This document shows, piece by piece, positions 3,196 through 58,196 of a stretch of 64,000 bases of DNA. The position numbers and the translations under genes were made by a program. Source of the stretch: a virus. The DNA is taken from the IMG/VR virus record IMGVR_UViG_3300042691_012617, positions 96,001 to 160,000 of that record; one strand, 5' to 3'. The notes beneath the pieces are model-generated. The model did not search any database. It was not told the origin of the DNA and saw only the letters and a program-made list of their open reading frames with translations. Every line of letters begins with the position of its first letter. The stretch's first letter is position 1.

Positions 3196-4917
3196 TCAGA
3201 AGGTGCCGCCATCGATCTTAGCAACGACCGTGGCAACTGAGTATCCCGATCCTGCATCGTTGACGAAGGTGGTGGGTTCGACACCACCCGACAGCCCCGT
3301 AAAGAATTTGAACTTGCCGCTGTCGGAGGCATCCCTGAAGATACCCGCAAACCGCTTACCGCTGCTTGTGTACTGTCCATAGAAACCGAGGTCAACGCTG
3401 TCGGCTGCGTTACCTGTTCCCAACATGATCAGGGGGTCTTCAACAACGAATGAATCAACATTTGCTGTAACTACCGTTCCGTTGACTGTTAGGTTTCCTG
3501 GAATTGTTACATCATTTGGAAGACCAATTGTAAAGGTGGTTGTCGATCTGCTTACATCGATCTGATTTGCTGCACCCGTGATAGTGATCGAACCGCCAAG
3601 CGCAACAGTAGATCCGCTGTCTGCGCTACTTGCCTTGAGTCCAATTGTGTTTGAGGAAAGTGTAACAAGCCCCGCTGTGCTGACATTAAAGTTTGAAGAC
3701 GAGAACGAAGCAACACCAGTAACGCTTGCGGATGCAATACGATTGTCAATAGTTACTGTGTTTCCCGAAGTGGAGACCAACAGGGATGGACCGCCCGAAA
3801 CAACAGTTTGACCTGTGACTTGGAATGGGGCGGTAGGGGTTACAAGACCCGCTGCACTTACTGAGTAGTAAGTCGAATTAAAAGCAGCAACACCTGTCAG
3901 GGTCGCAGTAGCCACTCTGTTTGTGATCGTGTTGTTTCCAACCACCGACTGAGAACCACCATCGCCCGTGATGGTGATTGCACCTGTGAGACCATTAAAA
4001 GTCTGCACACCGATGTTGTTGATGGTCTTGCCTGCACCGATGTTGATGAACGAACCCGCTTGTACCGTGTCGCCCGTGACCTGATATGCAGCAGCAAGAT
4101 CAACTAATCCCGCAGCAGAAACCGTGAATCGTGTTCCGTTGAAAGATGCAACGCCAGTAACGCTAGAGGTTGCAATACGGTTGTCAATCGTTACCGTATT
4201 GCCCGAGGTCGATACTAGTTGTGAGGAACCGCCCGAAACAACTGTCTGTCCCGTGACTTGGAACGCAGCAAGCAGATCGACATTTCCCGTAAGAGAAACT
4301 TGGAATCTGTTAGGATTGAACGATGCGGTACCTGTCAGCGATGTTGTGGCAAGGGGTACAGTAAAAGAGACTGCCCCCGTCAAACCATTGAATGTCTGAA
4401 CGCCGATGTTGTTGATCGTCTTTCCTGCACCAATGTTGATGAAGGAACCCGCTTGAACCGTATCGCCCGTGACCTGATATGCAGCAGCAAGTTTGACATG
4501 TCCAGTTGTGTCTACCGTGAAATGGGTATTGCTGAAAGAGGCGACACCTGTAACGCTTGTGGAAGCAAATCTTGCACCAAATGTTGTGGTGGTTCCCGAT
4601 ACAGTTTGTGTGATCGCACCCGATCCCGTGACAGTAAGATTGCCACCCGTACCGTTCAGGGAGTTGACAACGCTGCCACCACCGACTATACCATCGACAT
4701 ATGTCTTGACAGCGGATTGCGTGGGGATAGCGTACTGACTGTTTGTAGAGAGACTTCCGCTAGTGACTTGGGCACCGACCCAAATCGAATTCCCCGCAGC
4801 ATCACCAACGAACAACTTTTCGTTTACATCTGAATAGGCAAGTTCACCGAATGTCAGACCTGTTGGAGTGTCTGTTCCAGTTGAACGAAGAATTTGAATC
4901 GTACTCTCGCGGGGCAT
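3196..4917 (-). CDS. Repeat-rich tail fibre-like protein
   Basis: Mtd-N-like start (IQILRS..GELAYS..KLFVG), Thr/Gly/Val-rich repeats as in the neighbouring gene, ends DGGTF; AGGAG RBS and late promoter. Confidence 0.75.
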   Translation of the reverse strand: MPRESTIQILRSTGTDTPTGLTFGELAYSDVNEKLFVGDAAGNSIWVGAQVTSGSLSTNSQYAIPTQSAVKTYVDGIVGGGSVVNSLNGTGGNLTVTGSGAITQTVSGTTTTFGARFASTSVTGVASFSNTHFTVDTTGHVKLAAAYQVTGDTVQAGSFINIGAGKTINNIGVQTFNGLTGAVSFTVPLATTSLTGTASFNPNRFQVSLTGNVDLLAAFQVTGQTVVSGGSSQLVSTSGNTVTIDNRIATSSVTGVASFNGTRFTVSAAGLVDLAAAYQVTGDTVQAGSFINIGAGKTINNIGVQTFNGLTGAITITGDGGSQSVVGNNTITNRVATATLTGVAAFNSTYYSVSAAGLVTPTAPFQVTGQTVVSGGPSLLVSTSGNTVTIDNRIASASVTGVASFSSSNFNVSTAGLVTLSSNTIGLKASSADSGSTVALGGSITITGAANQIDVSRSTTTFTIGLPNDVTIPGNLTVNGTVVTANVDSFVVEDPLIMLGTGNAADSVDLGFYGQYTSSGKRFAGIFRDASDSGKFKFFTGLSGGVEPTTFVNDAGSGYSVATVVAKIDGGTF

Positions 4918-12639: not shown

Positions 12640-15600
12640 GACTTCTTCTCGGGGTTGTAGCCCCATACCTTGAGTGCGAGCAACTTGCGTGTTGGGCGAC
12701 CCTTCTCGTCACGCATGCCGCCCTTGGCACCCTTCATGCGGTTGATGAAGTTAACTTGCTTACCCGCCCATTTCCAATCGTTTGGTGTCCACTTTTCCTT
12801 GGGGGTGTCAAGCATGCGGATGATGGCACGGGCAGAGTCACGACCACTTGTGATCTTCTTGCCTCCTGCTCCTGCCTTTCCTGCCTCCTTGCGAGACAGA
12901 CCCGCTTCCTTGCCCTCGTCAGAATCAAGGAACGACTGAATCTCCTTGCCCGACATGTTTACGAGTTTCTGCCACTCCTTGTAGAGAGCCGACTTTTCCT
13001 CTTCCGACTTCTCTTCGCCAAGCCGCTCACGCTCTCCTGGAGTGTCCTTCTTATATGTCTTGACGATCTCGTCGCTGCCGACCAACAGCGGGCCTCTCTT
13101 GCCCATTGCAGTCCATTGCAGGACAGCATTGATCTTCTTCGATTCGTTCAGCCAGTTCTCTGTGGTATCGGTTTCCTCGCCGTGCATCTTCCACGCAGTA
13201 GCATAGAAGACTTCCTTCCAACGCTTGCCATATCGCTTTTGGAACTCCTTCTTGATCTTCTCTTTCTTGGAGAAGCGACGAGCAGGGCCGCTTGGAGGAC
13301 TGACTTCGACCAAGAGGTAGTCAAAGTCTTCGTTGATGTCGGTCTTGGGCAATTCGCTGCCCATCTCGCTATCGCGGATTTCCTTCAGCAAATCAATGTA
13401 TGAACGAGTCAATTGGGCAGCCTCCTGCATGTTACGAGTCAAGCAACGCTCCTCGTAGGCAATTGCCATACGAAGTTTGATTGCGTTTCTTTCATCAGAT
13501 TCATCGATCTTGGACAGACGCTCCATTGCATCGTCGTGTTCGTAGCCATTCTTGAGAGCCTTCAACTTACCCTTCTTGGCGAGTTTCTTGTACAGGGTGC
13601 TGTACTTCGATGGCTTGGTCTTGATGTCTTTCTCATCGGGATTGACAAACTCCCATGTCTGTGGATCGTCATCAGACATTGTCTTGCGCTTTTCAAGACG
13701 CTTCTTGCGAAGTTCGGCTTCTTTCTTGCTCAGACCCGCGACATACTTCTTGGGTAGACCCGAACCCTTGTCCTTTGGGCTTTCCTTTGTTTTACCTGTC
13801 TTGGTCTTGAACTCCTTGCCCTTCGTGACATCTGCTTCAATAAGGGGATTGCCTTCCATCTCATCGCCCATACCGAGCATGCTGAGGAAACTCATGGCAC
13901 CCGACACCAACTTAGTGGCGTAGACACCAATATCAATACCACCCGATTCCATGAACTTGTGGAATAGTTTGGCAATGATCTTGCCAATCTTGTTGTCTTG
14001 GGCAAACATTGAAAGGGTAACCCCTGCGCCCGAAGCCTTGTATGCCTGAAGCATGACTTCATCGCGGACACGCATGACTTCTCGCTTGAAATCTGCGGGT
14101 GGAATCTTGCCTTTCTTGTTCACCAAAGTGAAGACCTTTGCGCTGACTGCGGGAGTCTTCATGATCTCCGCAACAGCCTTCGCAGCATCTTTGACTGCGG
14201 TCTTTTCAACAAGTTCTTCCTCTTCTTCCTCGTCGCCCTTGCGCTTGGAGTTGATATCGGGCTGTGGGTAGATCGCTTCTGCGGGATCGACAACCATGCC
14301 TGTCTTACTGAGGAACTGCAATCCAATCAGCACCTTTGTGGACATGTGACTGCGGTCGCCAAGGCTGAACTTGATGTTGGGATATTTCTTGCCATGGAAC
14401 TCAATGTCCATGAGAACCACAAGACGCTTCTTCTCACCGATACCGCTCTTGACGGTGATGCGACTGACGATCTTTTTAGTGACCTTCTTGCCATTGGGCA
14501 ACTTGAAGGTGACTGTGTGATCGCCGTTGTCCTTGATGTCCTCGGCATGGATCATGTTGTAGCCGCTGTTGCCCGTGTCGATCTTGGCGGTGTACTCCGC
14601 ACCATCGATCTTCACTTCTTCACGCACGGCTAGGTTGGAGAACAACTTCCAATGTGCCTTGTTGAGGATGTAATCGACCAAGTCCTCTACAAGTTCCTCC
14701 CCCTTGACATTGTTCTTGCCCTTGCCATCCTCGTAGTAGCGGTAGTAAATGTTTCCGCTACCTGGGCTTGCATTCATCTCAATGATGTATGGCTTGCCCT
14801 GATTGATGACATGGTCGATACCGACATAGTAGCACTTGCTTACCCTTGCAGCCCGCTCCACCAACTTTATTTCCTCGTCAGAAAGTTGGAAAGACCCGCC
14901 CTTTGAACCACGGGCGATATTCGTGCGGAAGTCCTTGGGTGCCTTGTCTCTCTTGGCACACGCAAAGATCTTTCCGTTCAGCACGATGCTGCGGACATCG
15001 TTCTTGAAGTCAGGTAGGAACTCCTGAATGATGACTTCTGCCTTGTACTTCCATAGCGTCTGAAGCACCGACTTCAGGCTCTCCATGCTTTCGATCTTGG
15101 AGACACCGATGCCTTCCGCGCCCGTGAGAGTCTTCACAATGATCGGGAACTTGCCACCGACTTCCTTGACCGCAGTTTCAATGTTCTCCTCGTTGGCAAC
15201 GAATGCCGTGCGGGGGTGGGGCAACTCATGCTTCTTCAGGGCGATTGCCGTCTCCAACTTGTTGGCGCACAGTTCCATGCCACCACGCTCGTTGACCATG
15301 AACACGCCATTGTTCTGTAGGATGGTCATGATTGCGACTCCGATGTCGCTATTCATCACGCCACCGCGAACAATAGCAACCGTGTCGCTTGGATTGATGG
15401 TGCAGTCCTTGCCTTCACCGTCATAGTTCTTGATGACGATCTTCTTCGATGCAACGCTAGAAATGTCAACCTGAGCCTTGCTCGTCTTCACGGCATAGAA
15501 CTCAATCTTTCGTCGCTTGCAGATCGCTTCCATCTTCTCAATGGTGTCGCTCAGATCCTTCTCCGACGATGTGAGGGCTAGGATGGTTACCTTGTCCTCT

Positions 15601-16241
15601 CCATCCTTGGCTTCGAAGATGTACTCTTCCTTGAGGTTCAATCCTTTTCGGACATCGTTGTACATCTTCTTCTTGAGAGCCATGTCGGTTCCCGCGACAC
15701 CTGTGGCAAACTTCTTGAAGTCGCCATCAAATGCTGCTGCTCTCATCTTGGAGGCAGACATGCCCTGAACGCCCTGTGCATCATCGTCACGGGCTTCCCC
15801 TGCCTGTACGACTTCGAAGTTGTCGAATGAGTACTTGCGCTTCTTTGGATCGCGCTCGGCGGTTCTGCCCTTGTACTTTGCGATGTTCTTGAAATTCTCG
15901 ACCTGATCGCTGCCTGCAATCATCACGATGTTCTTGTAGCCCAAGTCACAGACATGCAGAACCGCAGAGTATGGATCTCCCGCCTTGTTCAGAGGGAACT
16001 TCGCCTTGGGGAAGAACTTCTTCAAGTACTCCACCTTCTGCTTATGTGTCAGGGGATTCTTTTTGGGATCCTGTGAGGTAGAGGCAAAGATGAAGTGATC
16101 GGCATTCCGCTTGGATGCCTCGGAGAGAACTTTGTCAACAAGCACACCGTGACCGATTGTCGGTGGGTTCATGCGACCGAATGCAATGACTACCGTGTCT
16201 TTCTTCGGTGCTTCCGTGAGGTGCTGTGCAAAGTTCTTCAC
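12636..16241 (-). CDS. Multidomain protein: HIGH-family nucleotidyltransferase + RimK-type ATP-grasp ligase + RimB-like aspartyl protease + small domains (C-terminal DUF3140-like)
   Basis: FGRMNPPTIGH/MSASKMR (aa ~1-210); FPIIVK..G.EG.GV, IIQEF, DVR, FRTN..RG, EMNASPG (~212-510); AKIDTG, DRSHM..KVLIG (~540-655); VNMS..E...L...E....G, SGR..A..I, L..WG.NP (~1085-1201). Confidence 0.85.
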   Translation of the reverse strand: MKNFAQHLTEAPKKDTVVIAFGRMNPPTIGHGVLVDKVLSEASKRNADHFIFASTSQDPKKNPLTHKQKVEYLKKFFPKAKFPLNKAGDPYSAVLHVCDLGYKNIVMIAGSDQVENFKNIAKYKGRTAERDPKKRKYSFDNFEVVQAGEARDDDAQGVQGMSASKMRAAAFDGDFKKFATGVAGTDMALKKKMYNDVRKGLNLKEEYIFEAKDGEDKVTILALTSSEKDLSDTIEKMEAICKRRKIEFYAVKTSKAQVDISSVASKKIVIKNYDGEGKDCTINPSDTVAIVRGGVMNSDIGVAIMTILQNNGVFMVNERGGMELCANKLETAIALKKHELPHPRTAFVANEENIETAVKEVGGKFPIIVKTLTGAEGIGVSKIESMESLKSVLQTLWKYKAEVIIQEFLPDFKNDVRSIVLNGKIFACAKRDKAPKDFRTNIARGSKGGSFQLSDEEIKLVERAARVSKCYYVGIDHVINQGKPYIIEMNASPGSGNIYYRYYEDGKGKNNVKGEELVEDLVDYILNKAHWKLFSNLAVREEVKIDGAEYTAKIDTGNSGYNMIHAEDIKDNGDHTVTFKLPNGKKVTKKIVSRITVKSGIGEKKRLVVLMDIEFHGKKYPNIKFSLGDRSHMSTKVLIGLQFLSKTGMVVDPAEAIYPQPDINSKRKGDEEEEEELVEKTAVKDAAKAVAEIMKTPAVSAKVFTLVNKKGKIPPADFKREVMRVRDEVMLQAYKASGAGVTLSMFAQDNKIGKIIAKLFHKFMESGGIDIGVYATKLVSGAMSFLSMLGMGDEMEGNPLIEADVTKGKEFKTKTGKTKESPKDKGSGLPKKYVAGLSKKEAELRKKRLEKRKTMSDDDPQTWEFVNPDEKDIKTKPSKYSTLYKKLAKKGKLKALKNGYEHDDAMERLSKIDESDERNAIKLRMAIAYEERCLTRNMQEAAQLTRSYIDLLKEIRDSEMGSELPKTDINEDFDYLLVEVSPPSGPARRFSKKEKIKKEFQKRYGKRWKEVFYATAWKMHGEETDTTENWLNESKKINAVLQWTAMGKRGPLLVGSDEIVKTYKKDTPGERERLGEEKSEEEKSALYKEWQKLVNMSGKEIQSFLDSDEGKEAGLSRKEAGKAGAGGKKITSGRDSARAIIRMLDTPKEKWTPNDWKWAGKQVNFINRMKGAKGGMRDEKGRPTRKLLALKVWGYNPEKKS

Positions 16242-17440
16242 GACTCGTTTACCTTTCTATTCTGTCTGCTGAACCGCAGACGATTGACCAACTTGACCGC
16301 CGTACCCGTTCTGACGATCACGATTCCTTCGGGGTCGGTGGGACGAATACCATCAGCATCCATGAAGAAGTGACCAAGGGCAGAGACCGCATACAACTTT
16401 CCAAGGATCATCTCCTTGACCTTTGCGATCTTGTTATGCAGTTCAAACATAGCATTGAACTGATCCTCGTAAGCATCGATGAAAGCGAGGATGTCGTTCA
16501 TGGCGGTTTCCTTCGCCTGTCTCCCCTTCTCGGTCTTCAACTTATTTAGTTCCTTTTCCAACTTAGTCTTTACATACAGTTTCAGACCACTTGCGCTGAA
16601 ACTGGTCAGACCGCCGTTGATCGTGCTGTTGATGTAGGGGAGCATCAGCGGCATGAGGTCTTTACGGGCAAGCAGGGGCTTCAGGAAAGGCTTTACCTTC
16701 TTGGCTAGCGTCTCGCACTCGGTGATGCCCCGAAGCGCGGTATCGCCTTCCCCGCCCTTCAGGAGGGCAGGGGTGAGGTCGTAGATGTTCGGATCGGTGA
16801 ACCAAACATCAGGATGCTGCTTGAGTTTGCTAGCGTTGAAGTTGAAGGTGGTTGCCTTCAAATCGGCAAGGGTCTTGCCTGAATACTCGGTGTGGAATGT
16901 AATTCCAATCTTTGCGGCTGCAATCCGCTTGCCGATTTCGCTGTCAGACGGGACGGTGTATAGAATCGTATTTGGTTGGAATCCAATATGTGGCTTTCCG
17001 CCAATCGTCAGACTCTTCTTACCATCAGCGGTGAACATCAGGTCGCCCTGAAGCACACCCTTGATTCCTACCTTTGGCAAATACTTCAGGCATTGAACCA
17101 ACTTGTCTGCCAAGTCCTTGATGTCAAATCCCTTGCGAATCTCTTCTTCGGTATGAAACACCTTCTGCACTTGCTTGCCGAAGACACCCTTGATAGCGAC
17201 GAAAAACTTCTTGTTCTCGGGATTGATGCCGCAGATAACAGCAGGCTTTCCATCCCATTTTGTGGACATTCCTAGCGATGTGTTGCCCGTCTTGAGACTC
17301 TGAACGATGTCCTTCATGAAGGCAATCGCATTGTCCAAGCCACTCCCACCCTTGAGGAGCATGAGATCTTCGATGTGATCTAGGTGCTTGTTCTGCTCAG
17401 TTTGCTCCATGAGAGGGAGCATTTGCTTAAATGACAGCAT
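16238..17440 (-). CDS. Conserved T4-like protein (DUF6267-like) with ligase-type nucleotidyltransferase motifs
   Basis: HLDHIED, KWDG, LQGDLMF, EGIVI, VKLVNR; late promoter at 17460..17466. Confidence 0.7.
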   Translation of the reverse strand: MLSFKQMLPLMEQTEQNKHLDHIEDLMLLKGGSGLDNAIAFMKDIVQSLKTGNTSLGMSTKWDGKPAVICGINPENKKFFVAIKGVFGKQVQKVFHTEEEIRKGFDIKDLADKLVQCLKYLPKVGIKGVLQGDLMFTADGKKSLTIGGKPHIGFQPNTILYTVPSDSEIGKRIAAAKIGITFHTEYSGKTLADLKATTFNFNASKLKQHPDVWFTDPNIYDLTPALLKGGEGDTALRGITECETLAKKVKPFLKPLLARKDLMPLMLPYINSTINGGLTSFSASGLKLYVKTKLEKELNKLKTEKGRQAKETAMNDILAFIDAYEDQFNAMFELHNKIAKVKEMILGKLYAVSALGHFFMDADGIRPTDPEGIVIVRTGTAVKLVNRLRFSRQNRKVNES

Positions 17441-17558: not shown

Positions 17559-18992
17559 TTAAGACCAACCCTTTATGGTTGGCTTCTCGCGCCCGTACCC
17601 GCCCGTGCGCCTGTGTGCGCCCCCGCCCCCGTGCGCGTGAGGGGCATCGTCTTCGTCTTGGTCATCGGCACCGTTGCCTTGAATCAACTGCTGTTGCGAT
17701 TCGTCCACATCAAACAACTTCATCTTGGCACGGTCGATCCCGATCACGAACTTGCGATTCGTGGCGACATCGTTGTAGCGGTTCTTCAACTGCTTGACCA
17801 TGACCTGTCCCAACTCGTCCAACTGTTCCGTGGCGATGAGGGCGAACATGAAGTCTGCGGTGGCGGGTAGACCAAAAGATTCCGATGTGTCAGTCAGTTC
17901 CACATCGGTATTGCCGAAGCCCGAACGATTGGTCTGTGTTGCGGTGAAGATCGGCACCCCAACCTCCACAGCCAAGCCGCGAAGTTCCTCTGCAATTGCC
18001 TTGACATAGGTGTACGAATTGACATTTCCGTTCGCCTTGAAGCGAGACGATGCACAAATGTTCAGGTAATCGATGAAGATAACATCGGGCTTGAAGTTCT
18101 TCTTCAGGCGCAGTTCATCCAACAAGTGACGGAAGTGATTGGCATTCGCAGATGCCGTGGGGTACTCCTTGATCAGAAGTTTGCCTGTGATGCCCATGGT
18201 CACCTTGGCAAGCCGCTTGGCATAGATCTCCATTGGCAACTTCTTGAGATCGTCTAATGTGATATCCATAAGGTTAGCATCGATTCGCTCTGCAATCCGC
18301 TCCTCTGCCATCTCACAGGTGATGTACAGGACATTCTTGCTCTGTGACAAGCAGTTAGCGGCATGGTGGCACATGAACAGGGACTTGCCCACGCCTGTAC
18401 CCGCGAGGATGACATTCAGAGTCTTGTCGGGCACACCGCCGTTGGTGATCTTATTGAAGTAGTCTAGGTCGAATGGTGTCTTCTTTTCTACGCGGTGGTA
18501 GAAGTCGTACCGCTTCTCGGCATCCTCAATGAAATCGTGACCGATGTGTTCATCGAACGACACGCTGAGTGCCTTGGTCAGGATCTCGGGGATGGCGTTC
18601 TTCGACCGACCCTTCGCCTTCTTCTCGTCAAGGAGTTCGATGGACTCCATCAGGGCGTTGTAGACCGCCTTGTCCTTGCAGAACTTCTCGGTCTGATCAA
18701 CAAGCCACTCCTCATCAGGCTCCTCGGTGCCTTTGTCCATCGTCTCTACCAACTTGACACACTCATCAAACTCACCCTGAGATAGACCGTCCTGTTGATT
18801 CAGGATGATCTTCAGGGCTTCGCGGGTGGGAGCGGTGGAGTACTTTTCGATGAACTCAGACACCGTGTTGAACAGCCGCTTCTCACAGGAGTCGTGAAAG
18901 TACTCCTGCTTGAGAAATGGTTGGACGCGGCGTGTGAACTCGGGTCTGTGAAGAAGACTGCGTAGGATGATGAGTTCAATCTTGTCGCTCAT
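17559..18992 (-). CDS. 41: Replicative DNA helicase (T4 gp41-like)
   Basis: LAGTGVGKS, IDYLNIC, AEELRGLA, TATQTNR, SESFGLPATAD, KQLKNRY. Confidence 0.97.
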   Translation of the reverse strand: MSDKIELIILRSLLHRPEFTRRVQPFLKQEYFHDSCEKRLFNTVSEFIEKYSTAPTREALKIILNQQDGLSQGEFDECVKLVETMDKGTEEPDEEWLVDQTEKFCKDKAVYNALMESIELLDEKKAKGRSKNAIPEILTKALSVSFDEHIGHDFIEDAEKRYDFYHRVEKKTPFDLDYFNKITNGGVPDKTLNVILAGTGVGKSLFMCHHAANCLSQSKNVLYITCEMAEERIAERIDANLMDITLDDLKKLPMEIYAKRLAKVTMGITGKLLIKEYPTASANANHFRHLLDELRLKKNFKPDVIFIDYLNICASSRFKANGNVNSYTYVKAIAEELRGLAVEVGVPIFTATQTNRSGFGNTDVELTDTSESFGLPATADFMFALIATEQLDELGQVMVKQLKNRYNDVATNRKFVIGIDRAKMKLFDVDESQQQLIQGNGADDQDEDDAPHAHGGGGAHRRTGGYGREKPTIKGWS

Positions 18993-47151: not shown

Positions 47152-47679
47152 TCAGTAACCCAACTTCTTTAGCGCAGCAATTGTCTCTGCCGCACTCTTG
47201 TGCTTGATCCCGATGCCACCACGGGCTTCCCATTCCTTGATGTTCTTTCCCCAATCATCGATGAGGATGTTGGGAACTCCCTTGGTGACAGCGTAGTCCT
47301 TCTTCTGATCCCGCAGGAGAACATGGCTCTTGGCGGGAAGGGGGCGAAGGTTCTTTTCGATCCACTTCATCTTGTCCTGCTTGGATTTTGACTGCCACGA
47401 TGTCGTGTGAGCGGACAGGATGTTGGGATCGTGCTTGGAGATGTATGCCCACAACTGCTTGCCGTCCTTCATCCAAGGAAGTTCCGCAAACAGGTGCGGG
47501 TGTTCCTTGTCGATGCGAGGCTTGAGTGGATTGACATACGAGTCAAAGTTCTTGTTGTTCAGGTCTTTGATACCATAAAGGTTGGCGATGCCGCCGATGA
47601 TGTCCACCAAGACACCGTCCATGTCGCAGTAGATCTCGCCCTTGACGGCTTCGTTGATGTGGTGGAGGAATGACTTCAT
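47152..47679 (-). CDS. HAD-family 5'(3')-nucleotidase/phosphatase
   Basis: YCDMDGVLVD, ILIDD, W...GGIGI.H; starts MKSFLHHINE after late promoter at 47687..47693. Confidence 0.85.
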   Translation of the reverse strand: MKSFLHHINEAVKGEIYCDMDGVLVDIIGGIANLYGIKDLNNKNFDSYVNPLKPRIDKEHPHLFAELPWMKDGKQLWAYISKHDPNILSAHTTSWQSKSKQDKMKWIEKNLRPLPAKSHVLLRDQKKDYAVTKGVPNILIDDWGKNIKEWEARGGIGIKHKSAAETIAALKKLGY

Positions 47680-49841: not shown

Positions 49842-50024
49842 TTATGGTCTCGTACTAATGGTTGTCTTCTGTGCCGAGTGGGGTGCCATCACCGTATTGT
49901 TCGGGATCGCATTGCTCTTGGGCTTCCCGCCCTTCTTCAAGGACTTCTGTTGCATGATGTAATCGTCCATTCCCTTGCGGAACTGAAACCAATCCTTGCC
50001 GCGTTGAATGATGTCTTCTTTCAT
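49842..50024 (-). CDS. Small basic hypothetical protein
   Basis: ATGA coupling to upstream gene. Confidence 0.5.
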   Translation of the reverse strand: MKEDIIQRGKDWFQFRKGMDDYIMQQKSLKKGGKPKSNAIPNNTVMAPHSAQKTTISTRP

Positions 50025-50950
50025 ACGGGCAACTTTGGATCAGGACTCATGAAATTGTTCTTCTTCATGGCGGTCATCATCACCATCTTCTTCATCTTGC
50101 CATCCCAATCAAGAGTGAACGGCATGTTGAGACTCTTACTCACATCAAGAATGATCGCCTTCCAATCGACGGGGTGATCCTTGATCTTCTGTGCATGCTT
50201 CTCATATGTCTTGCGGAAGGCATCCTGAATCTCAGGAATCGTGACCGTGCCACCATAGCCACGACTGCCGTTGATGCGTTCCCAAAAGTGTCGGGTGAAG
50301 GCGATGTCCAACTTTGCCGATGCGAACATGGCATCAAGGACAGACTCAAGTCGCTTCAGGTCATTCCATGCCACGGGCGTGTGCGCCTGCGGCTGCACAT
50401 ACGAGTGCCCCCGCGCATACCCGTGACCCGTGGTCGGGCGACCCGTGACGATGCCTTCGCTGACATCCTCTGTGAAGAACGACATGAGTTTGGGGGAGAC
50501 GCGAACCTTGCGCTTCCCGATCTTGCGGGTGCTGCTGATGAAGGTGGTCTCTTCCAATTTCTCGTCCAAGTCCCACGGACCATAGTGTCCCGTGCTTCTC
50601 AACTTGCGAGTCATCTCAATGTAGGTGTATGTCTTGTATGCACCCTTCTCGTTCGGTTTGATCTTTCCGATTGCGTAGTAGACACGCTTGTCAATTCGGA
50701 TGTCATTGCCATTCGATTGATCGATCACCATGTCACCGTCCTCCACCCATGCGTGGGGAAATCGTAGCCCTGCCACAGATCCCTGCCCATACACCAAGGC
50801 ATGGACGAGGACGGGCTTGCCTGAGGTGGACTTGATCGGTTTGCCGAAGAAGGCTGAGTTGAAGCGCATCATGAGATTTACTGCGGCTGTCATACAGTCG
50901 CCATCTCCATCGTGTCGCTCCGTTAGATATTGATTGAAAGACTTGGTCAT
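50021..50950 (-). CDS. Two-domain protein: transglutaminase/papain-like Cys-His-Asp domain + RelE/BECR-like domain
   Basis: GDCM...HAWVE...D; FTRHFWERIN...N.PF...T.MKK; starts MTKSFNQYLTE. Confidence 0.55.
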   Translation of the reverse strand: MTKSFNQYLTERHDGDGDCMTAAVNLMMRFNSAFFGKPIKSTSGKPVLVHALVYGQGSVAGLRFPHAWVEDGDMVIDQSNGNDIRIDKRVYYAIGKIKPNEKGAYKTYTYIEMTRKLRSTGHYGPWDLDEKLEETTFISSTRKIGKRKVRVSPKLMSFFTEDVSEGIVTGRPTTGHGYARGHSYVQPQAHTPVAWNDLKRLESVLDAMFASAKLDIAFTRHFWERINGSRGYGGTVTIPEIQDAFRKTYEKHAQKIKDHPVDWKAIILDVSKSLNMPFTLDWDGKMKKMVMMTAMKKNNFMSPDPKLPV

Positions 50951-51249
50951 CTATTCCTCGACTGCCAATCAGGAGTGATTGGAATACTCTTATCGCTCAC
51001 GGCTCTCTTGCTCTGCGCTCCTGCCGCCTTGAGCCATTGCAGGACATGTGTTCTTCGCGTGGTCGCTTCGACTGCATTGGTGACTTCCCAAGGCCCCATT
51101 TGATCCTTGTCATCTGCCCAAGTTTCAACATCGAAATCTGTGGGAACTTGGTCAACTGCAAAGTTTGCACCGTCATAGCCTACTGCCCTTGTGTAGACCA
51201 TGTTGGCGGTGCTATTGCTCTCATGGATGTACTGCTTGAAGGACTTCAT
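50947..51249 (-). CDS. Small protein with capsid-targeting-like leader
   Basis: MKSFKQYIHE; CTAAATA at 51256..51262. Confidence 0.7.
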   Translation of the reverse strand: MKSFKQYIHESNSTANMVYTRAVGYDGANFAVDQVPTDFDVETWADDKDQMGPWEVTNAVEATTRRTHVLQWLKAAGAQSKRAVSDKSIPITPDWQSRNR

Positions 51250-51529: not shown

Positions 51530-52312
51530 TCAGAACTTGATGCCGACTCCGAAGGTGACGATTGCGTCAGCCTCAGGGGTGGCGACATCCTGCGACACAG
51601 GGACAAGCACCCCTGCATTCAGATCAATGTTCGACGCGACATGCCAGTTGGCGACAGGACCAAGGAACAGTTGGTTCTCACCGCTGTTCACATAGTAGAC
51701 CTGATCGAACTGTACGCCAAGGTCGAACGAATTCCACTTGTAGGAAAGGTCGGTGCCGAGCGTAACGACATCGGAGTCTGTCTTGGCACCGAGCCAAGTG
51801 ATATACGACTCCCCGCCGTCGAAACGATATTCGGCAGTCTGCTTGAAGTCGAAGACCCACAACTTGCAGTCGAACGCCGCGTTGATGTACGGGTTGACAT
51901 TCGCGTTACGGAAATACTCCGAACCCACAGGCAGATACACACCGCCGCCAAGAGCCAAATCCCACTTACCGATGACATCGTTGTTTCCTCCGATGAAGTC
52001 CCACGAACCGCCGAGGCTGATGTTGCTCACGGTTGTGTTGTCATCCTGCGAGTACACAGGAATGTTGAGATCAAGGCTGATGTCCTTGGTGAGGTCAACG
52101 CCGAGAGTCGAGTTGAAGGCGAACAGAGTGCTGCCCGAACCCTTGAAGGTGTGGATGTCAACGGATTCGCTGAGGTACCACTTCAGGTCAGACACCGCGC
52201 TGATTGCGGGTTCTGCCTGAGGAGCCGCCGTCTGTGCCTGAGCAACAGCAGCGGTGGAGATGAGAGCAGCAGCAGCCACACTCGTTCCGATCTTACTAGT
52301 CATGTTTGTCAT
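51530..52312 (-). CDS. Outer-membrane beta-barrel protein
   Basis: Ala-rich signal peptide, alternating amphipathic beta strands, terminal FGVGIKF beta-signal; AAGGAG upstream. Confidence 0.75.
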   Translation of the reverse strand: MTNMTSKIGTSVAAAALISTAAVAQAQTAAPQAEPAISAVSDLKWYLSESVDIHTFKGSGSTLFAFNSTLGVDLTKDISLDLNIPVYSQDDNTTVSNISLGGSWDFIGGNNDVIGKWDLALGGGVYLPVGSEYFRNANVNPYINAAFDCKLWVFDFKQTAEYRFDGGESYITWLGAKTDSDVVTLGTDLSYKWNSFDLGVQFDQVYYVNSGENQLFLGPVANWHVASNIDLNAGVLVPVSQDVATPEADAIVTFGVGIKF

Positions 52313-52423
52313 TCCTATCTTTCTCCTTTGCACCGCCCGTTCATTCGGGAGGTGCGGATACTTATACCTGATGATGGTGAACCTGAGCGCAATCTTAACC
52401 AACTCCAATCAAGTGAAAAGAGA

Positions 52424-52451
52424 AACCCCCACCACAGAGCGGCAGGGGCTT
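52424..52451 (-). terminator. Rho-independent terminator after the 52487 gene
   Basis: AAGCCCC...GGGGGTT stem then TCTCTTTT. Confidence 0.65.
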
Positions 52452-52486: not shown

Positions 52487-55400
52487 TTAGGTCAGAACTC
52501 TGTCCTTGATCAATGCTTCGATGGTGGTCGCATCGACATTTCTGACAGCCGTTCTGTACCCGATGGCTTGGTGAACGAGATCCACTTTGCCCTTCGCGTT
52601 GGTGGCTACCTTATAGTTCTCACCCTTCACCACGCTGCCGCTCATCATACTCTTGCTCTGAAGCGCACGGAGTCTTTGACCGACATAGACCATCTTCGAT
52701 CCTTGTACCGCGACACGATCCTGCTCTTCGATCACTTCACCATCGATCTCTGTGATCTCAGATACGGTTCCCTTATCTACTAGTTTCTTCCAAATCTCCC
52801 ATGCCTTCCCCTGCTGCGTTTTGGCTCTTGTGTACATGCTCTTCAAGTTTTTATAGGATGGAACTGCTCCTTCAAACGGAGGAACCGCTCCTGTTGCCTT
52901 GTACCAAGTCCTCAGATCATTCTCACTTGGAACACCCTTCGCCTCTGTGACATCGATTTCTACACTCTCTGCCTTCACATACTTGACATGGTTGCGGATC
53001 GCCCACTTCTCCATCACGGGCTTGCCGTCCGCACCTTCATCAACGGCGATGTAGCAGACGGTTCCCTTGACATTGGCTGATCTCCATTGCTCCTTGCGGT
53101 CCCCACCATAGGAGACGCAGACTTCGTGCGGGAGACCATGGCTCTTGCCCCATGAGTCGGTTGAGTTGCGGTACTCAAACCGCTTCTTATAAGTTGCCTC
53201 CGTGAAGGCACCGACGATTCCCTTCGTGTCCAAGGGAGCGTATGCTTCTGTGAATGATTCGAACACAGCCTTGATCTTAGAGTTGTTGCGATCCTCAGGC
53301 TTGAGGAATTCACGAACTCCCTTAAGAACATGTGCAACCATGTTCTTCGGTTCTCCACGCAGGAAGTCGGTTAGCCCGTCGATCATTTCCCACACAGGGC
53401 CTGAGTCACCGTTCGGAACTTTCATAGTTCCATTGAGACCACCCTTCTTATATGCCTTCTCTAGGTCATCGATCAAACCATCGGCATCCGTCTTGGTCAG
53501 GGAGTCTGTTCCCTTCCACCACACCTCGCTGATGTCGAATGATTCGACCATCGACATGCCGTGCTTGTCCATCCACATGGCGACAGCCTTGAGCAACTGA
53601 CGAGGAGCGAAACGCATTTCCTTGTCACCGACGAAGCGTGTCGTGCTGTCGGGGAAGGCAGTCAGAACCAACTTTGGATTACCCTGCTGCTTCGTGTTGA
53701 AGAAGACCTTATGTGGTGCAATCGATGTGCGGGTGTTCTTCTTGGCGGGTTCTTCGATGAAGCCTACCTCGCCCTTGTTTTGAACGCTGATGAGCCAACC
53801 CTTGAGACTGCCCTCCACGAACGAAGTGAAGCGATACTTGCCGATGACCTGTTGGGCTTCGGTCAGTTCCTCGCCGTCCTCTTCGACGCTCTCGCCCCAA
53901 CTCTTGTTGACGAAGGCAGCGGCTTCTCTCTCGCTATTCATATCCTTGACCCACTTGCCGCTCATCGTATAGATTCCGATGATTCTCTTGGAGTCACGCT
54001 TGCCAGGACCCGTGAGATATTTTACCTTTGCCTCTTCGATATCTACTTCTTCCTTCTGCACCTTCTGCTTGGGAACGAGTACGCTTGCAGGCTCACCGAC
54101 ATCGACCACATAGCCACCGCCATGCTGCCGTGCCTTGTCCGTGCCGCCGTCATCGTAACGGACGATCTTGCCGCTGACCATCTTGCCCTTATGCGGAACC
54201 TTGACCTTGTCGCCCGCCTTGAACTGTTCAGCGACTTCGACTTCTTCCTTGATGGCGACCACGGTGACCTCGCCGCCCGACCAACTTCCCTTGGAGCCGA
54301 CCTTGGCTTCAGGCTTCTTGGTGAGTCCCTTGGTGAGAGAAGCGAAGTCGCTAGGAGCATACACCTTGATCGACATGCTCTCGGGACTCTTCTCCTTGGT
54401 GACAACCAACACGCTGCCCGTGGGCTTGCCCTCAAGAGACTTCTTGGCAGCACGAAGAGAACTGACCATGGAGGATCCGCCGATAGGATCGTCCTTGACC
54501 ATCTTCTCGGCACCCGCCATCATGCGGACACCTTCTTCAACATTTTCAACTTCTTCCTTCACTCCTGCGTTTCTCTTCGCAGCGGCGATGGCTTCGTCCC
54601 TAGTGGCATATCTGCCGATCACCGTTCCCTTGCGACCATCGGGGAAGCGGACACTACCTTGGCTGTAACTTAGTTGGTACAACACGAACTTGCCGCTATC
54701 TCGGTCGAGGCGAAACCCATAGGTGCCGATGTTCAAGTTCTCCTCGTTGACCTCGACCTCTTCCTTAGTTCCAAGATATTTGACTTCGTTCTTGTGCTTG
54801 GCGATGTCATATCTCGGATTGCTACCGACATTCACCATCAGAGCGTCTGAGCCAACCTTGACCACGACTCCACGACGAGGCTTGCCGTTGACCATGGTCT
54901 GCACGGCATCACCAACACGGAACTGATGTGTATCGGTTGCCTCTGCAACCTCGACGCTCTCACCGTGGAATGTGTTGAACATCATCTCTAGTGCAGCGAT
55001 GTCCGACTCCCGTGACTTGTCGCCCATGGCAGGAGCGACCTTGTTCTTGTCTAGGAGTTGCTTGAGTTCCTTGCGAACGGGATCGGTCTTGGACAATCCC
55101 TTCATCTCTGCTGCCTTGAGTTTGGCACCGTACTTGCGACTGATCTCCGCAACCACAGCCTTGGGCAGACCTTCGACCCAATCCTCCATGGCTGCTTTGA
55201 CTGCGCCCTCTGTGATGTACTCTTCGTGAAGCGATTCAAGCATGAGGAACAGATGCGACTCTTTGTCCAAGCCCTCTGTCTTGAGCATGCTGAAGTCAAC
55301 GGTGACGATGGCATTGGTTCCCGCAGGAGCCTTGACCTTGTCGAACGATGTGTTGATCGACGCGGGTGAACCCGTGGCTTGACGCTTGGTCAGACCGTTG

Positions 55401-55690
55401 AAGGTGATGATGAAGTCCCGTGCCTTCGCAGCGTTAGCGAAGTACAGCATCATCTTCTTGTCGCTGACTTCCATCTTGTTGATGCCCTTTTCGAAACCCA
55501 TCTTTTGGATGAGTTGACGCATCTTGGCTTCGAACTGCTGCTTGCTGTAGCCGAACATCGCGCCGCCCCCGCCTGTGGCGAACAGGGGTGCTTCGTTGAT
55601 CGCCTTCGCCATCTGCTCGTTCTTAGAGGTGGCGGCACCGCCGAACTTGGCGGCTTCTGCGAGGATTCGTCTTTGGAATTCGTTCATCAT
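52487..55690 (-). CDS. Modular putative polyprotein (~11 small domains separated by Glu-rich linkers)
   Basis: Late promoter at 55716..55722, AGGAG RBS; recurring KEEVEVAE/ESVE..TE linkers; two SH3/KOW-like modules. Confidence 0.8.
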   Translation of the reverse strand: MMNEFQRRILAEAAKFGGAATSKNEQMAKAINEAPLFATGGGGAMFGYSKQQFEAKMRQLIQKMGFEKGINKMEVSDKKMMLYFANAAKARDFIITFNGLTKRQATGSPASINTSFDKVKAPAGTNAIVTVDFSMLKTEGLDKESHLFLMLESLHEEYITEGAVKAAMEDWVEGLPKAVVAEISRKYGAKLKAAEMKGLSKTDPVRKELKQLLDKNKVAPAMGDKSRESDIAALEMMFNTFHGESVEVAEATDTHQFRVGDAVQTMVNGKPRRGVVVKVGSDALMVNVGSNPRYDIAKHKNEVKYLGTKEEVEVNEENLNIGTYGFRLDRDSGKFVLYQLSYSQGSVRFPDGRKGTVIGRYATRDEAIAAAKRNAGVKEEVENVEEGVRMMAGAEKMVKDDPIGGSSMVSSLRAAKKSLEGKPTGSVLVVTKEKSPESMSIKVYAPSDFASLTKGLTKKPEAKVGSKGSWSGGEVTVVAIKEEVEVAEQFKAGDKVKVPHKGKMVSGKIVRYDDGGTDKARQHGGGYVVDVGEPASVLVPKQKVQKEEVDIEEAKVKYLTGPGKRDSKRIIGIYTMSGKWVKDMNSEREAAAFVNKSWGESVEEDGEELTEAQQVIGKYRFTSFVEGSLKGWLISVQNKGEVGFIEEPAKKNTRTSIAPHKVFFNTKQQGNPKLVLTAFPDSTTRFVGDKEMRFAPRQLLKAVAMWMDKHGMSMVESFDISEVWWKGTDSLTKTDADGLIDDLEKAYKKGGLNGTMKVPNGDSGPVWEMIDGLTDFLRGEPKNMVAHVLKGVREFLKPEDRNNSKIKAVFESFTEAYAPLDTKGIVGAFTEATYKKRFEYRNSTDSWGKSHGLPHEVCVSYGGDRKEQWRSANVKGTVCYIAVDEGADGKPVMEKWAIRNHVKYVKAESVEIDVTEAKGVPSENDLRTWYKATGAVPPFEGAVPSYKNLKSMYTRAKTQQGKAWEIWKKLVDKGTVSEITEIDGEVIEEQDRVAVQGSKMVYVGQRLRALQSKSMMSGSVVKGENYKVATNAKGKVDLVHQAIGYRTAVRNVDATTIEALIKDRVLT

Positions 55691-55739
55691 AGGGTTAATG
55701 CTCCTGAGTAAGGAGTATTTAGCCTTTGACAAACGGGGA

Positions 55740-55848
55740 AAGAGAAAGAGTGGGGAACCTGTTCAACCACCCACGGCTGCTAATCGTGCAACCTTGCTCC
55801 TGTCTTAGTACCCCCGCTAGTGGGGCGCAGGACGGCTTTACTAGACGG
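55740..55848 (-). ncRNA. Candidate small RNA
   Basis: Own TTGACA-16-TATAGT promoter (55854..55881), terminal hairpin 55750..55774 plus U-tract, no sizeable ORF. Confidence 0.45.
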
Positions 55849-55902
55849 ATGTAACTATACAGCGACGAAAGTTGCTGTCAAGAACCTTGTCGAAAGATTC
55901 TT

Positions 55903-56232
55903 TTACTTGGCTCTACCGCCAAGGAACTTCGTGTGGATAGGATCGCCCTTCAGATGAATGCCGACGATCTCATATCCGTTTGTTTTGAGTCCCGCAACAT
56001 ACGCATTTAAGTGTCGATTAAATTCGTACTTGTTGTCGGTCGTCTTCAGTTGCACGGGTGGGAACACCGCATTGACCGTGGTCTTCTCGCCCGTCTTTGG
56101 AAGAACGATTCGATAACGAACGACAGCCCTGATGTCATACTCATCATCAGGTTCGTATGCGTTCGATTTGTACTTGAAAACCTTGAACGAGTCGAATGTC
56201 GATTCGCTGATGTAGTCCTTGTATGACTTCAT
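55903..56232 (-). CDS. Small protein with capsid-targeting-like leader
   Basis: MKSYKDYISE. Confidence 0.7.
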   Translation of the reverse strand: MKSYKDYISESTFDSFKVFKYKSNAYEPDDEYDIRAVVRYRIVLPKTGEKTTVNAVFPPVQLKTTDNKYEFNRHLNAYVAGLKTNGYEIVGIHLKGDPIHTKFLGGRAK

Positions 56233-56234
56233 GG

Positions 56235-56624
56235 TCAGCCGTATGCCTTCCCGCGAACGAAGAAGTGATCCTCATGCTCCTTGAATCCGAAGCACTCCCG
56301 AGCGTAGTCAAGGATCACCTGTTTGTCAAACTCCTTGCATGAGTAGACATCAAGGGTGATGAAGTGAGTCGGTTCGATGGAGTGAATCTGAATGCCGCTT
56401 TCGATCAGGGGCACCCACCCACTCACTCCTGCCTTCTCAGGATATAACTCGCGTCCGTGGTCAGTCGGGCCGTGGATCACTACGGGCTGCGACATGCGAG
56501 TCATGCCGATGCGATCCACTAGCCGCTCAAGGAACCGATAGGTCAGTTCCATGTCATCTGCTACTCCCTCGTTACATCCATACATGTCGAGAAAGTATGA
56601 GTATCCAAAAGCCTTGTTCTTCAC
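56235..56624 (-). CDS. speD: S-adenosylmethionine decarboxylase proenzyme-like
   Basis: LDMYGC, GVSG...LIESGIQIHS (ES autocleavage), LDVYSCKEFD. Confidence 0.8.
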   Translation of the reverse strand: MKNKAFGYSYFLDMYGCNEGVADDMELTYRFLERLVDRIGMTRMSQPVVIHGPTDHGRELYPEKAGVSGWVPLIESGIQIHSIEPTHFITLDVYSCKEFDKQVILDYARECFGFKEHEDHFFVRGKAYG

Positions 56625-57128: not shown

Positions 57129-58196
57129 TCATACCCGTGGCTTGCCTGTCGGAGGATCTGTGTTGATTGTCCCCGAGGTAACAACGGCTTGTTGAAAAGT
57201 TGGAATATTGTATGACCCCCATGCTGCCAGTACGCGAGAGAGATCGATCCCATCAACCTTGCCGTCCCCATCCATGTCCTCAAAGATAGGTTTCGTCTGT
57301 CCCCACCGAGCAAGGATTTGGCTCAGGTCTGCCCCATCGACCACACCGTCCTGATTGATGTCTTCCTTCTTGGCAGACAACTTCACATGCTGCAACTCAT
57401 ATCCGAAGGGAGCAAGTGCTGCAACGAGGTTGGCAAAGGTAGCCTTGTTGATCGACTGACCACCATACTGCAATCCAACGAAGACGGTCTCTCCATATGC
57501 ATCCCGTACCATCACGGGAGAACCCGAGTCGCCCACGAAGATCGCAATTGTTCCATTCGGATACGCACCATCATTGATGCCGTCCAAGGACGGTGTCAAG
57601 TTGTATCCACCTGTATCGTTCGTAGTTGTATTCAGATATGCATTCTTAAAGAGTGTCTTGTAGATCTTACCGTTGCTGTCCTTCGTCCACAGCGAAGTTC
57701 CCGTGGGGATGTAAAGCGGGTCAGCGATCCTGTTGTAGATCTTTAGGTCTGCATTTGGGAACTCTCTGTCGAACTCAAGCAGGGTCAGGTCGGGACCGAT
57801 GTTGAGATAAACACGGGTCACCTTGTTCTCATAGAACGCACCGCCCTTGCCGAGAAAACGAATGCCACCCGTATTGATATTTGGGTCTGCGTGTCCACCA
57901 CGGAAGTGTTGACAGATCAATGCATGGCGGGGCGAGATCAGTACCGCACCGTAGGTGCATTGGTTCCAAAAGTTCACGCTGTTTCGATCATACGGAATCG
58001 TAAACATACCGCTGTTCGAAATGTTGTTGCAGAAGTATCGATGGAGGGCGCGTGTGCCCGACCAATCGATGTACTCATATGTTTGACATTCCGAATTGTA
58101 ACCATCGGGCGCAATACCCCCGCTCGTTGGTGTGGCTTGTGTTGGGTAATGGTATACATCATGGATCGCGGGTGTGTAATAGCGCAGGACTGCCAT
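57129..58196 (-). CDS. Trypsin-like serine protease with C-terminal dockerin-like double EF-hand repeat
   Basis: LISPRHALICQH, PDLTLL, GDSGSP; DINQDGVVDGADL..IL..WG / DMDGDGKVDGIDL..VL..WG; late promoter at 58223..58229. Confidence 0.82.
   Translation of the reverse strand: MAVLRYYTPAIHDVYHYPTQATPTSGGIAPDGYNSECQTYEYIDWSGTRALHRYFCNNISNSGMFTIPYDRNSVNFWNQCTYGAVLISPRHALICQHFRGGHADPNINTGGIRFLGKGGAFYENKVTRVYLNIGPDLTLLEFDREFPNADLKIYNRIADPLYIPTGTSLWTKDSNGKIYKTLFKNAYLNTTTNDTGGYNLTPSLDGINDGAYPNGTIAIFVGDSGSPVMVRDAYGETVFVGLQYGGQSINKATFANLVAALAPFGYELQHVKLSAKKEDINQDGVVDGADLSQILARWGQTKPIFEDMDGDGKVDGIDLSRVLAAWGSYNIPTFQQAVVTSGTINTDPPTGKPRV

Follow-up and report, generated by a model that had tools for sequence, protein, structure and literature searches.

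Injection of phage-encoded proteins together with the genome is exemplified by the internal proteins (IPs) of bacteriophage T4, the textbook case of such cargo, each of which is encoded by one gene and carries a separate leader. Among these T4 proteins, IPI acts by blocking a restriction enzyme and Alt by modifying the host RNA polymerase. In the T4 record, IPII and IPIII start with MKTYQEFIAE/A and IPI with MKTFKEF...ITE/A (MKTFKEFTSTTTPVSTITE/A), where the slash marks the junction after the Glu residue, and the genes encoding IPI to IPIII adjoin the tRNA cluster. The T4 prohead protease gp21 recognizes L/I-x-E, after which it cuts, and depends on few further determinants; in T4, replacing this Glu by Asp blocks processing (PMC9026906). 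In this study, a gene residing on a 64,000-nucleotide stretch of viral DNA (referred to as the window) was analyzed, which represents bases 96001-160000 of a 168,426-bp IMG/VR virus record with an estimated completeness of 93%. The gene encodes a chain of about 12 small basic domains connected by acidic linkers that resemble head-protease cut sites. Based on sequence interpretation, and with a probability of roughly 60%, the product is proposed to be a late, prohead-targeted polyprotein that would be cut by the gp21-type protease into small basic internal proteins, its linkers additionally serving as recombination joints. The linker-joined modules described in a first-pass annotation of the window were confirmed, and the cargo interpretation given there is partly supported.

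The open reading frame (ORF) of the polyprotein spans window positions 52487-55732 on the minus strand, counted from a TTG codon. Its likely start is the ATG at 55690, located ten bases past AGGAG, resulting in a protein of 1067 amino acids (aa; P0002); the N-terminus MMNEFQ was also found in close homologs, which points to the same start. All 11 acidic linkers quoted in the first-pass annotation were recovered within this single ORF, with coordinates differing by a few bases from the earlier figures (Table 1). A twelfth junction (INE/A, aa 33/34), recognized by means of relatives, lies between the first domain and a leader of 33 aa. Within the leader, the sites I-L-A-E/A and I-N-E/A are located at aa 9-12 and aa 31-33, respectively. 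Lys accounts for 11% of all residues, and the module cores, with linkers set aside, mostly feature an isoelectric point (pI) of 9-10 and net charges of +3 to +8, in line with the previous description of the modules as Lys-rich; the linkers carry net charges of -4 to -6. Since the modules matched neither each other nor the rest of the genome by tblastn, the polyprotein is not a repeat protein. The claim that its modules are unrelated therefore holds at the level of tblastn but not for modules 3 and 6, the two formerly called SH3/KOW-like, which are distant relatives as deduced from profile comparison (hhalign, 92%).

Table 1. Features of the polyprotein gene and of its surroundings in the window. 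Each of modules 1 to 11 ends with the last Glu of its linker, the window position of which is the lower coordinate given.
Feature	Residues (aa)	Window position	Strand	Sequence at end or start	Remark
Leader	1-33	55592..55690	-	MMNEFQRRILAE/AAKFGG...AINE/A	two L/I-x-E sites; candidate prohead-targeting sequence
Module 1 core	34-161	55208..55591	-	end EEYITE/G	
Module 2	162-250	54941..55207	-	end GESVEVAE/A	helical
Module 3	251-317	54740..54940	-	end KEEVEVNEE/N	missing in close relative
Module 4	318-386	54533..54739	-	end KEEVENVEE/G	
Module 5	387-488	54227..54532	-	end KEEVEVAE/Q	missing in close relative
Module 6	489-553	54032..54226	-	end KEEVDIEE/A	most widespread and most conserved module
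Module 7	554-611	53858..54031	-	end ESVEEDGEELTE/A	
Module 8	612-722	53525..53857	-	end ESFDISE/V	beta-rich domain, then helix
Module 9	723-815	53246..53524	-	end ESFTE/A	helical
Module 10	816-916	52943..53245	-	end ESVEIDVTE/A	corresponds to phrog_23785
Module 11	917-989	52724..52942	-	end EVIEE/Q	few homologs
Module 12	990-1067	52490..52723	-		C-terminal; pI 10.2; mostly last module in relatives also
CTAAATA late-promoter motif		55716..55722	-		28 nt upstream of ATG
Terminator-like hairpin and T run		52423..52451	-		36 nt past stop; 13-pair stem, 7 G-C pairs
109-aa neighbor		55903..56232	-	start MKSYKDYISE/S	T4 CTS-like start; missing at this place in contig L005
Two neighbors (100 aa; 309 aa)		50021..51249	-	starts MKSFKQYIHE/S; MTKSFNQYLTE/R	100-aa gene with own CTAAATA

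Applying a strict linker definition (V, I, L or F at P3, Glu at P1, at least four acidic residues within nine and a non-acidic residue at P1′), six linkers were counted in the polyprotein, compared with 1.04 ± 0.99 in composition-preserving shuffles; six were reached in two of 5000 shuffles. Among 279 non-redundant junctions identified in relatives, P1 is Glu in 79% (background 8.5%) and P3 is V, I or L in 71% (background 18.5%). Furthermore, A, G or Q occupies P1′ in 73% of these junctions (background not computed), and many of the exceptions to the rule represent alignments shifted by one residue. All 12 junctions of the polyprotein carry the motif, P3 being V or F in some of them. The family pattern of a hydrophobic P3 and Glu at P1 matches the L/I-x-E rule of gp21.

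Since most fragments comprising a single module were misplaced by MAFFT when aligned to the full 1067-aa query, no whole-protein alignment was used for folding, and AlphaFold2 models cover the two regions with verified alignments, namely aa 1-250 and aa 612-916. The latter model reached a mean predicted local distance difference test score (pLDDT) of 83.7 and a predicted template modeling score (pTM) of 0.43, and comprises three domains with pLDDT values above 90 as well as low-confidence stretches (below 50) at aa 717-727, just past the linker at aa 811-815 and at aa 907-916. Within aa 1-250, the leader region (aa 1-43) and the last linker remained below 50, and an alpha/beta core was modelled at aa 45-145, followed by the helical module 2. 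In total, linker pLDDT is below 50 in three of the four junctions modelled. The independent domains anticipated in the first-pass annotation were thus obtained in both models as confident domains and low-confidence linkers instead of a single compact fold. Accordingly modelled, five modules are predicted to fold independently, like beads on a flexible chain.

Regarding known folds and families, no convincing match to a solved fold was obtained for the models of aa 1-250 and aa 612-916, and profile searches of modules 4, 5 and 6 against PDB sequences yielded no significant match. The model of module 10 matches the 93-aa protein S5MD99 of phage phiM12 (TM 0.83). No Pfam family scored above the cut-off for the polyprotein, and PHROGs searches with the protein and its pieces returned phrog_23785 only (module 10, E 1.4e-12), a family of unknown function. 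For modules 3 and 6, the SH3-like assignment has its sole basis in matches below the Pfam threshold, namely to L21e (E 0.012), S1 (E 0.025) and, for module 3, Phage_ProQ_C_like (E 0.012).

A word-indexed search identified 105 long relatives of 586-1221 aa, and an exhaustive HMMER search (E ≤0.001) returned at least 434 cluster representatives at 50% identity, ranging from 91 to about 1200 aa and all derived from metagenomes. When the 12 modules were compared with the long relatives by BLASTP, matches started and stopped at linkers. Stand-alone and shuffled modules, both expected from the first-pass annotation, were found by means of BLASTP and HMMER, and module order is not invariant among the 105 long relatives, examples being 1-2-8-7-6-9-4-5, 1-2-5-6-7-x-10-12 and 6-x-12. 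Solo forms comprise 91-180 aa. In short relatives, one or two modules directly follow leaders of about 20 aa ending in hydrophobic-x-E, among them the classes MKSFNDNWDG...LNE/Q, MSGTAKRLAEAANQ...IAE/A, MYYYQRRLLEEAAKY...ITE/V, MSDINKEK...VNE/G and the T4-like MKRYRDFIVE/A. In total, nine leader classes start 157 of 227 family proteins (the polyprotein's own class accounts for 92 of the 227), and the hydrophobic-x-E junction comes after all nine types.

Individual modules recur in different surroundings. The polyprotein-type leader directly precedes other modules in relatives, and module 2 was found behind other leaders and also after a cytidylyltransferase domain. Module 6 has about 100 homologs, shows a mean column identity of 78% over 41 diverse copies and occurs solo behind three leader types; module 8 exists as solo proteins of 113 aa. 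Module 10 is the only module found in cultured phages, where it represents a solo ORF of 84-93 aa (Sinorhizobium phages phiM12, phiM7 and phiN3 and Limnohabitans phage DC31). Distant relatives featuring other leaders are also encoded in T4-like genomes, adjoining gp44/gp45-like or gp46/gp47-like genes. Pfam domains detected in 62 diverse relatives were limited to LPD29 (11 proteins), the cytidylyltransferase domain (two) and HicA (one), and a few relatives contain endolysin-like and peptidase-like pieces according to PHROGs. As side observations, a cytidylyltransferase-like N-terminal domain precedes the modules in P0161, P0216 and P0219, with V/I/L-x-E junctions at least in P0161, and module 6 is fused to a HicA toxin domain in P0106 (1146 aa, encoded on a 61-kb JGI contig).

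These findings bear on the question of whether the chain is cut at all. It might be an uncut polyvalent protein, packaged in the virion or attached to it and delivered whole, with the acidic stretches acting as flexible spacers and recombination joints. Phage polyvalent proteins with 2-15 domains are known and predicted to be injected (PMC5512222), and the occurrence of LPD29 in 11 of the 62 relatives, the endolysin-like and peptidase-like PHROG matches and the helix modelled across the junction of modules 1 and 2 are compatible with this explanation. However, a plain spacer needs neither Glu at P1 nor V, I or L at P3 at the frequencies recorded, and the same junction would be unexpected straight after the short N-terminal leaders of solo forms. 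Moreover, a gp21-type protease is encoded by the phage, and in T4 accessible L/I-x-E sites get cut (PMC9026906). Because one three-residue rule holds at hundreds of junctions, because the junction also follows short leaders in single-module proteins and because genes with canonical capsid-targeting sequences (CTS) adjoin the polyprotein gene, cleavable cargo is favored over plain spacers, and delivery of an uncut chain is regarded as unlikely.

Evidence on the second proposed role of the linkers originates from a close relative. An ENA contig of 175 kb (L005) shows the same gene order around the polyprotein gene and encodes a polyprotein of 898 aa lacking exactly modules 3 and 5; module by module, it is 93-99%, mostly 96-98%, identical to the polyprotein of the window. 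Around the first indel, the sequence of the window is ...GAGAGCGTCGAGGTTGCAGAG/M3...GAAGAGGTCGAGGTCAACGAGGAG/ and that of the contig ...GAGAGCGTCGAGGTCAACGAGGAG/, which places the breakpoint within the shared GTCGAGGT; the breakpoint of the second indel, comprising module 5, lies within the shared AAGGAAGAAGT. The DNA stretches common to the linkers at these breakpoints are 8-11 nt in length. Furthermore, modules 5 and 6 are missing from P0005, another close variant, which possesses an extra insert of 155 aa flanked by the same kind of linker, and a syntenic but more distant locus (L007) harbors a largely different module set. Gains and losses consequently fall at linkers, down to the shared 8-11 nt, as had been suggested when the linkers were first described as joints for module exchange. 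Read from these sequences, linker codons are in-frame joints, and the indels in L005 are taken as direct evidence.

The variable module content is also relevant for a possible role as an expendable accessory of the prohead core or scaffold, similar to gp22, gp67 and gp68, the pieces of which would exit the head or remain there as inert filler and not as effectors. Core proteins of T4 contain many L/I-x-E sites at which they are cut (PMC9026906), and the phage's own gp22 is likewise rich in acidic V/I/L-x-E stretches. However, the polyprotein shows no sequence similarity to this gp22 or to small ORFs beside gp21; BLASTP of gp22, gp21 and nearby small ORFs against the 227 family proteins revealed no match at E 0.01. 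Moreover, the modelled modules are compact globular domains and not coiled coils, module content varies between near-identical phages, and the individual conservation of modules (as described for module 6) together with their shuffling suits independent functions better than a size-determining scaffold. A core accessory is hence considered very unlikely. A supposed relationship between a 148-aa ORF beside gp21 and the MERLTYKF-type leader domain of some relatives was dropped, since BLASTP found nothing. As a separate observation, the gp22-like scaffold gene (positions 15176-16273 of the complete record, G000) and a 157-aa ORF between portal and protease (18249-18722), both on the minus strand, encode the common motif KF(A/G)GLY(K/D)DG(T/S)GKGA(V/I)(I/V)P(G/A)PVD.

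The source genome is that of a T4-superfamily phage. It encodes the major capsid protein Gp23 (E 1.8e-150), for which the closest cultured counterparts, showing 60-64% identity, are those of Methylophilales phage Melnitz, Pelagibacter myophages and cyanomyophages. Comparison of 20 kb of the window with cultured phages by megablast gave no match. The cognate gp21-type protease postulated in the first-pass annotation is present in the same genome as a Peptidase_S77 prohead protease (PF03420, E 1.3e-33; G000 positions 16467-16904), and its GELxHP and GVSSRG motifs, containing the His and Ser residues, align with T4 gp21. Mapping the Gp23 maturation site by alignment with T4 was not successful, since the region is too gappy; L-R-E/S at about aa 44-46 is no more than a candidate.

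Neighboring genes start with T4-like CTS (Table 1), as do the T4 IP genes, so that the polyprotein locus looks like the internal-protein region of this phage. In addition, the locus is located close to a tRNA cluster, as in T4. Further CTS-like starts were noticed at G000 positions 143679 (window position 47679), 162852, 164218 and 166291, all on the minus strand; they read MKSFLHHINE/A, MKSFSQHITE/A, MQSFLAHITE/A and MKSFNENWDG..., and several are preceded by their own CTAAATA. Judged by such starts, the phage appears to possess unusually many leader-tagged late genes.

Concerning expression, CTAAATA occurs in 36 copies on the gene strand and four on the other strand of the genome, each gene-strand copy being located shortly upstream of a start codon, that of gp23 included. 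In the T4-like phage Aeh1, CTAAATA has been described as the late promoter (PMC1524935). The previous designation of the polyprotein gene as a late-promoter gene thus stands regarding the presence of a motif at 55722-55716, but this motif is not the T4 form TATAAATA; at motif level, late transcription of the gene is indicated. Upstream of the late promoter, window positions 55733-55881 (minus strand) comprise a near-consensus sigma-70-type promoter and, past it, about 125 nt that are not translated. This stretch is identical in L005, and its 3′ part (GCCGTGGGTGGTTG...GGTTCCCCAC) is kept in the divergent locus L007. Screening of the untranslated region against Rfam gave no credible match (only SNORD46 with 16 bits compared to a gathering threshold of 40 bits, E 0.67), and its folding energy is ordinary (z 0.28). 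The stretch may represent an early promoter or an element resembling the promoter early stem-loops (PeSLs) of T4-like phages.

Other genes in the vicinity were noted in their own right. Directly downstream of the polyprotein gene, a product of about 260-290 aa is encoded at window positions 51530-52408 (minus strand); it starts like a signal peptide (…AAALISTAAVAQAQTA) and has the C-terminus …GVGIKF. It resembles an outer-membrane beta-barrel, is found at the same position in L005 and L007 and had no Pfam or PHROG match. Two genes upstream of the polyprotein gene, an S-adenosylmethionine decarboxylase (PF02675, E 1.5e-16) is encoded at window positions 56235-56624 (minus strand).

Combining these results, the following course of events is conceivable for the proposed cargo polyprotein. 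The leader of about 33 aa, a short helical CTS-like peptide with a first site I-L-A-E/A and a second site I-N-E/A, would bring the chain into the prohead core; this targeting role is inferred from the T4 CTS precedent. Once activated, the gp21-type protease would cleave each linker behind its last Glu, i.e., after V/I/L/F-x-E and before A, G, Q, N or V, thereby setting free about 12 basic domains, folded and 6-14 kDa in size. These domains would remain associated with the DNA and reach the host along with it, like T4 IPI to IPIII and Alt. In this way, one leader could load a fixed-ratio set of different cargo proteins. At the DNA level, the linker codons (GAA/GAG-GTN repeats) provide short shared sequences at which modules are deleted, inserted or reordered, with reading frame and cut sites being kept. 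For the modules of the polyprotein, we infer prohead targeting, cleavage, head retention and injection.

Several findings weigh against this interpretation. The leader belongs to a sequence class different from the T4-type CTS of the neighboring genes, so that its targeting role is a guess, and some relatives start straight with the cytidylyltransferase domain and possess no leader. The helix modelled at the junction of modules 1 and 2 (pLDDT about 70) would be a poor protease substrate. Since the whole chain contains about 34 hydrophobic-x-E motifs, the motif by itself is weak evidence, and conservation of the acidic linkers could stem from a linker or charge-balancing role or from recombination history instead of cleavage. 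Moreover, all long relatives are of metagenomic origin, with none present in the cultured-phage collection. The gene is located far from the head genes, and a strong sigma-70-like promoter (TTGACA, 16 nt, TATAGT; 11 of 12 matches) lies 160-190 nt upstream of it, so that expression may not be purely late. Finally, phage phiM12 encodes a leaderless 93-aa homolog of module 10 (SmphiM12_312, L004 positions 4043-4324) among early-type genes, which implies that modules are not obligatorily virion cargo. Accordingly, the same domain may arrive by early expression in some phages and, as proposed here, by packaging in others; T4 offers a precedent, as Alt is injected, whereas expression of its paralogs ModA and ModB follows entry (PMC5512222). 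The genes surrounding the phiM12 homolog include an RNA ligase, MutT and an nrdC.11-like gene.

The distance from the head genes, the phiM12 homolog and the sigma-70-like promoter would also suit a non-virion product, which could be a multi-domain protein of the cytoplasm or else a polyprotein processed by an enzyme other than gp21. For the latter case, a late trypsin-like, dockerin-tailed protease encoded two genes upstream comes into question, and Glu-specific proteases of the trypsin fold exist. The corresponding protein (Dockerin_1 Pfam match; fold read from sequence) occupies a syntenic position in the window and in both L005 and L007; the contig of P0053 harbors a Trypsin_2 gene. However, the hydrophobic P3 residue combined with Glu at P1 is the gp21 rule, CTS-like leaders on neighbors and solo forms make sense only for head targeting, and the late promoter motif is shared with gp23. 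On balance, a product acting outside the virion is distinctly unlikely. The dockerin-tailed protein itself comprises 355 aa, is encoded at window positions 57129-58196 (minus strand) by a late gene with CTAAATA upstream, carries a tail of the dockerin type I repeat kind (Pfam E 4.5e-7) and is possibly an alternative linker protease or a virion-surface enzyme.

If the polyprotein is indeed packaged and cut, the ratio of many cargo proteins would be fixed, no separate targeting signal would be needed for each of them, and cargo domains could be exchanged rapidly in frame. The generalization that environmental T4-like phages use one leader for a polyprotein cut into a dozen injected proteins, with linkers as in-frame recombination joints, is put forward tentatively, its chances being slightly below even. 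Provided that it applies, each phage lineage could put together a domain set of its own within a short time, drawing on a common pool of hundreds of small domains, which would represent a protein-level counterpart to gene-cassette shuffling for counter-defense. Comprising at least 434 clusters (50% identity), all uncharacterized, this large family constitutes a rich source of small candidate host-takeover or anti-defense domains. Moreover, the junction rule (V/I/L-x-E followed by A, G or Q) offers a simple way of splitting family proteins into testable units and predicts exact peptide ends for metaproteomics of virions or viral fractions.

Among known systems, T4 IPI, IPII, IPIII and Alt are close to the polyprotein. 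Common features are the T4-superfamily background, late genes, a variable region near a tRNA cluster, a gp21-type protease, a short (here putative) leader ending in L/I-x-E, small basic products (predicted for the polyprotein) and neighbors with CTS leaders. Whereas every T4 gene of this kind yields one leader-bearing protein, the polyprotein has about 12 domains behind a single leader, each with a cut-site-like linker. Furthermore, the T4 leader MKTYQEFIAE/A, representing a type of propeptide that comprises 10-19 aa, differs in sequence class from the 33-aa leader MMNEFQRRILAE/A...INE/A. A full-text literature search, subscription journals being outside its coverage, returned no description of a cargo polyprotein cut by the prohead protease in T4-like phages.

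The polyvalent proteins described by Iyer, Burroughs, Anand, de Souza and Aravind in 2017 (PMC5512222) likewise combine many unrelated domains in one chain, show variable architectures built from a shared domain vocabulary and, by prediction, are delivered with the DNA; here, this vocabulary is reflected by LPD29, detected in 11 of 62 relatives. With its 12 modules, shuffled in the 105 long relatives, the polyprotein lies within their range of 2-15 distinct domains and variable architectures. Domains of the polyvalent vocabulary, such as large polyvalent protein-associated domains (LPDs), metallopeptidases (MPTase), ADP-ribosyltransferases (ART), ParB-like and lysozyme domains, were not found in the polyprotein itself, LPD29 being present in relatives only. 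Moreover, recognizable enzymatic domains predominate in the polyvalent proteins described, and a metallopeptidase embedded in them is credited with their processing, whereas the polyprotein features no Pfam family above the cut-off, no embedded peptidase and regular inter-domain sites fitting the prohead protease. T4-like phages are mentioned in that study only in connection with stand-alone Alt-type ARTs.

Inner-body and ejection proteins of the giant phages phiKZ, 201phi2-1 and SPN3US are also cut after Glu by a gp21-related protease, sometimes at several sites (PMC9026906). However, they are encoded by separate genes, many of them paralogous, undergo propeptide removal and show the motif S/A-x-E compared to V/I/L-x-E here. 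Regarding module exchange, gene shuffling by PeSLs (Comeau, Arbiol and Krisch 2014, PMC4122927) similarly relies on short conserved flanks as exchange points in T4-like phages; PeSLs are intergenic promoter/stem-loop elements that swap whole genes, whereas a coding linker swaps domains in frame in the polyprotein. Taken together, the polyprotein is akin to both T4 CTS cargo and polyvalent proteins and is a clean member of neither.

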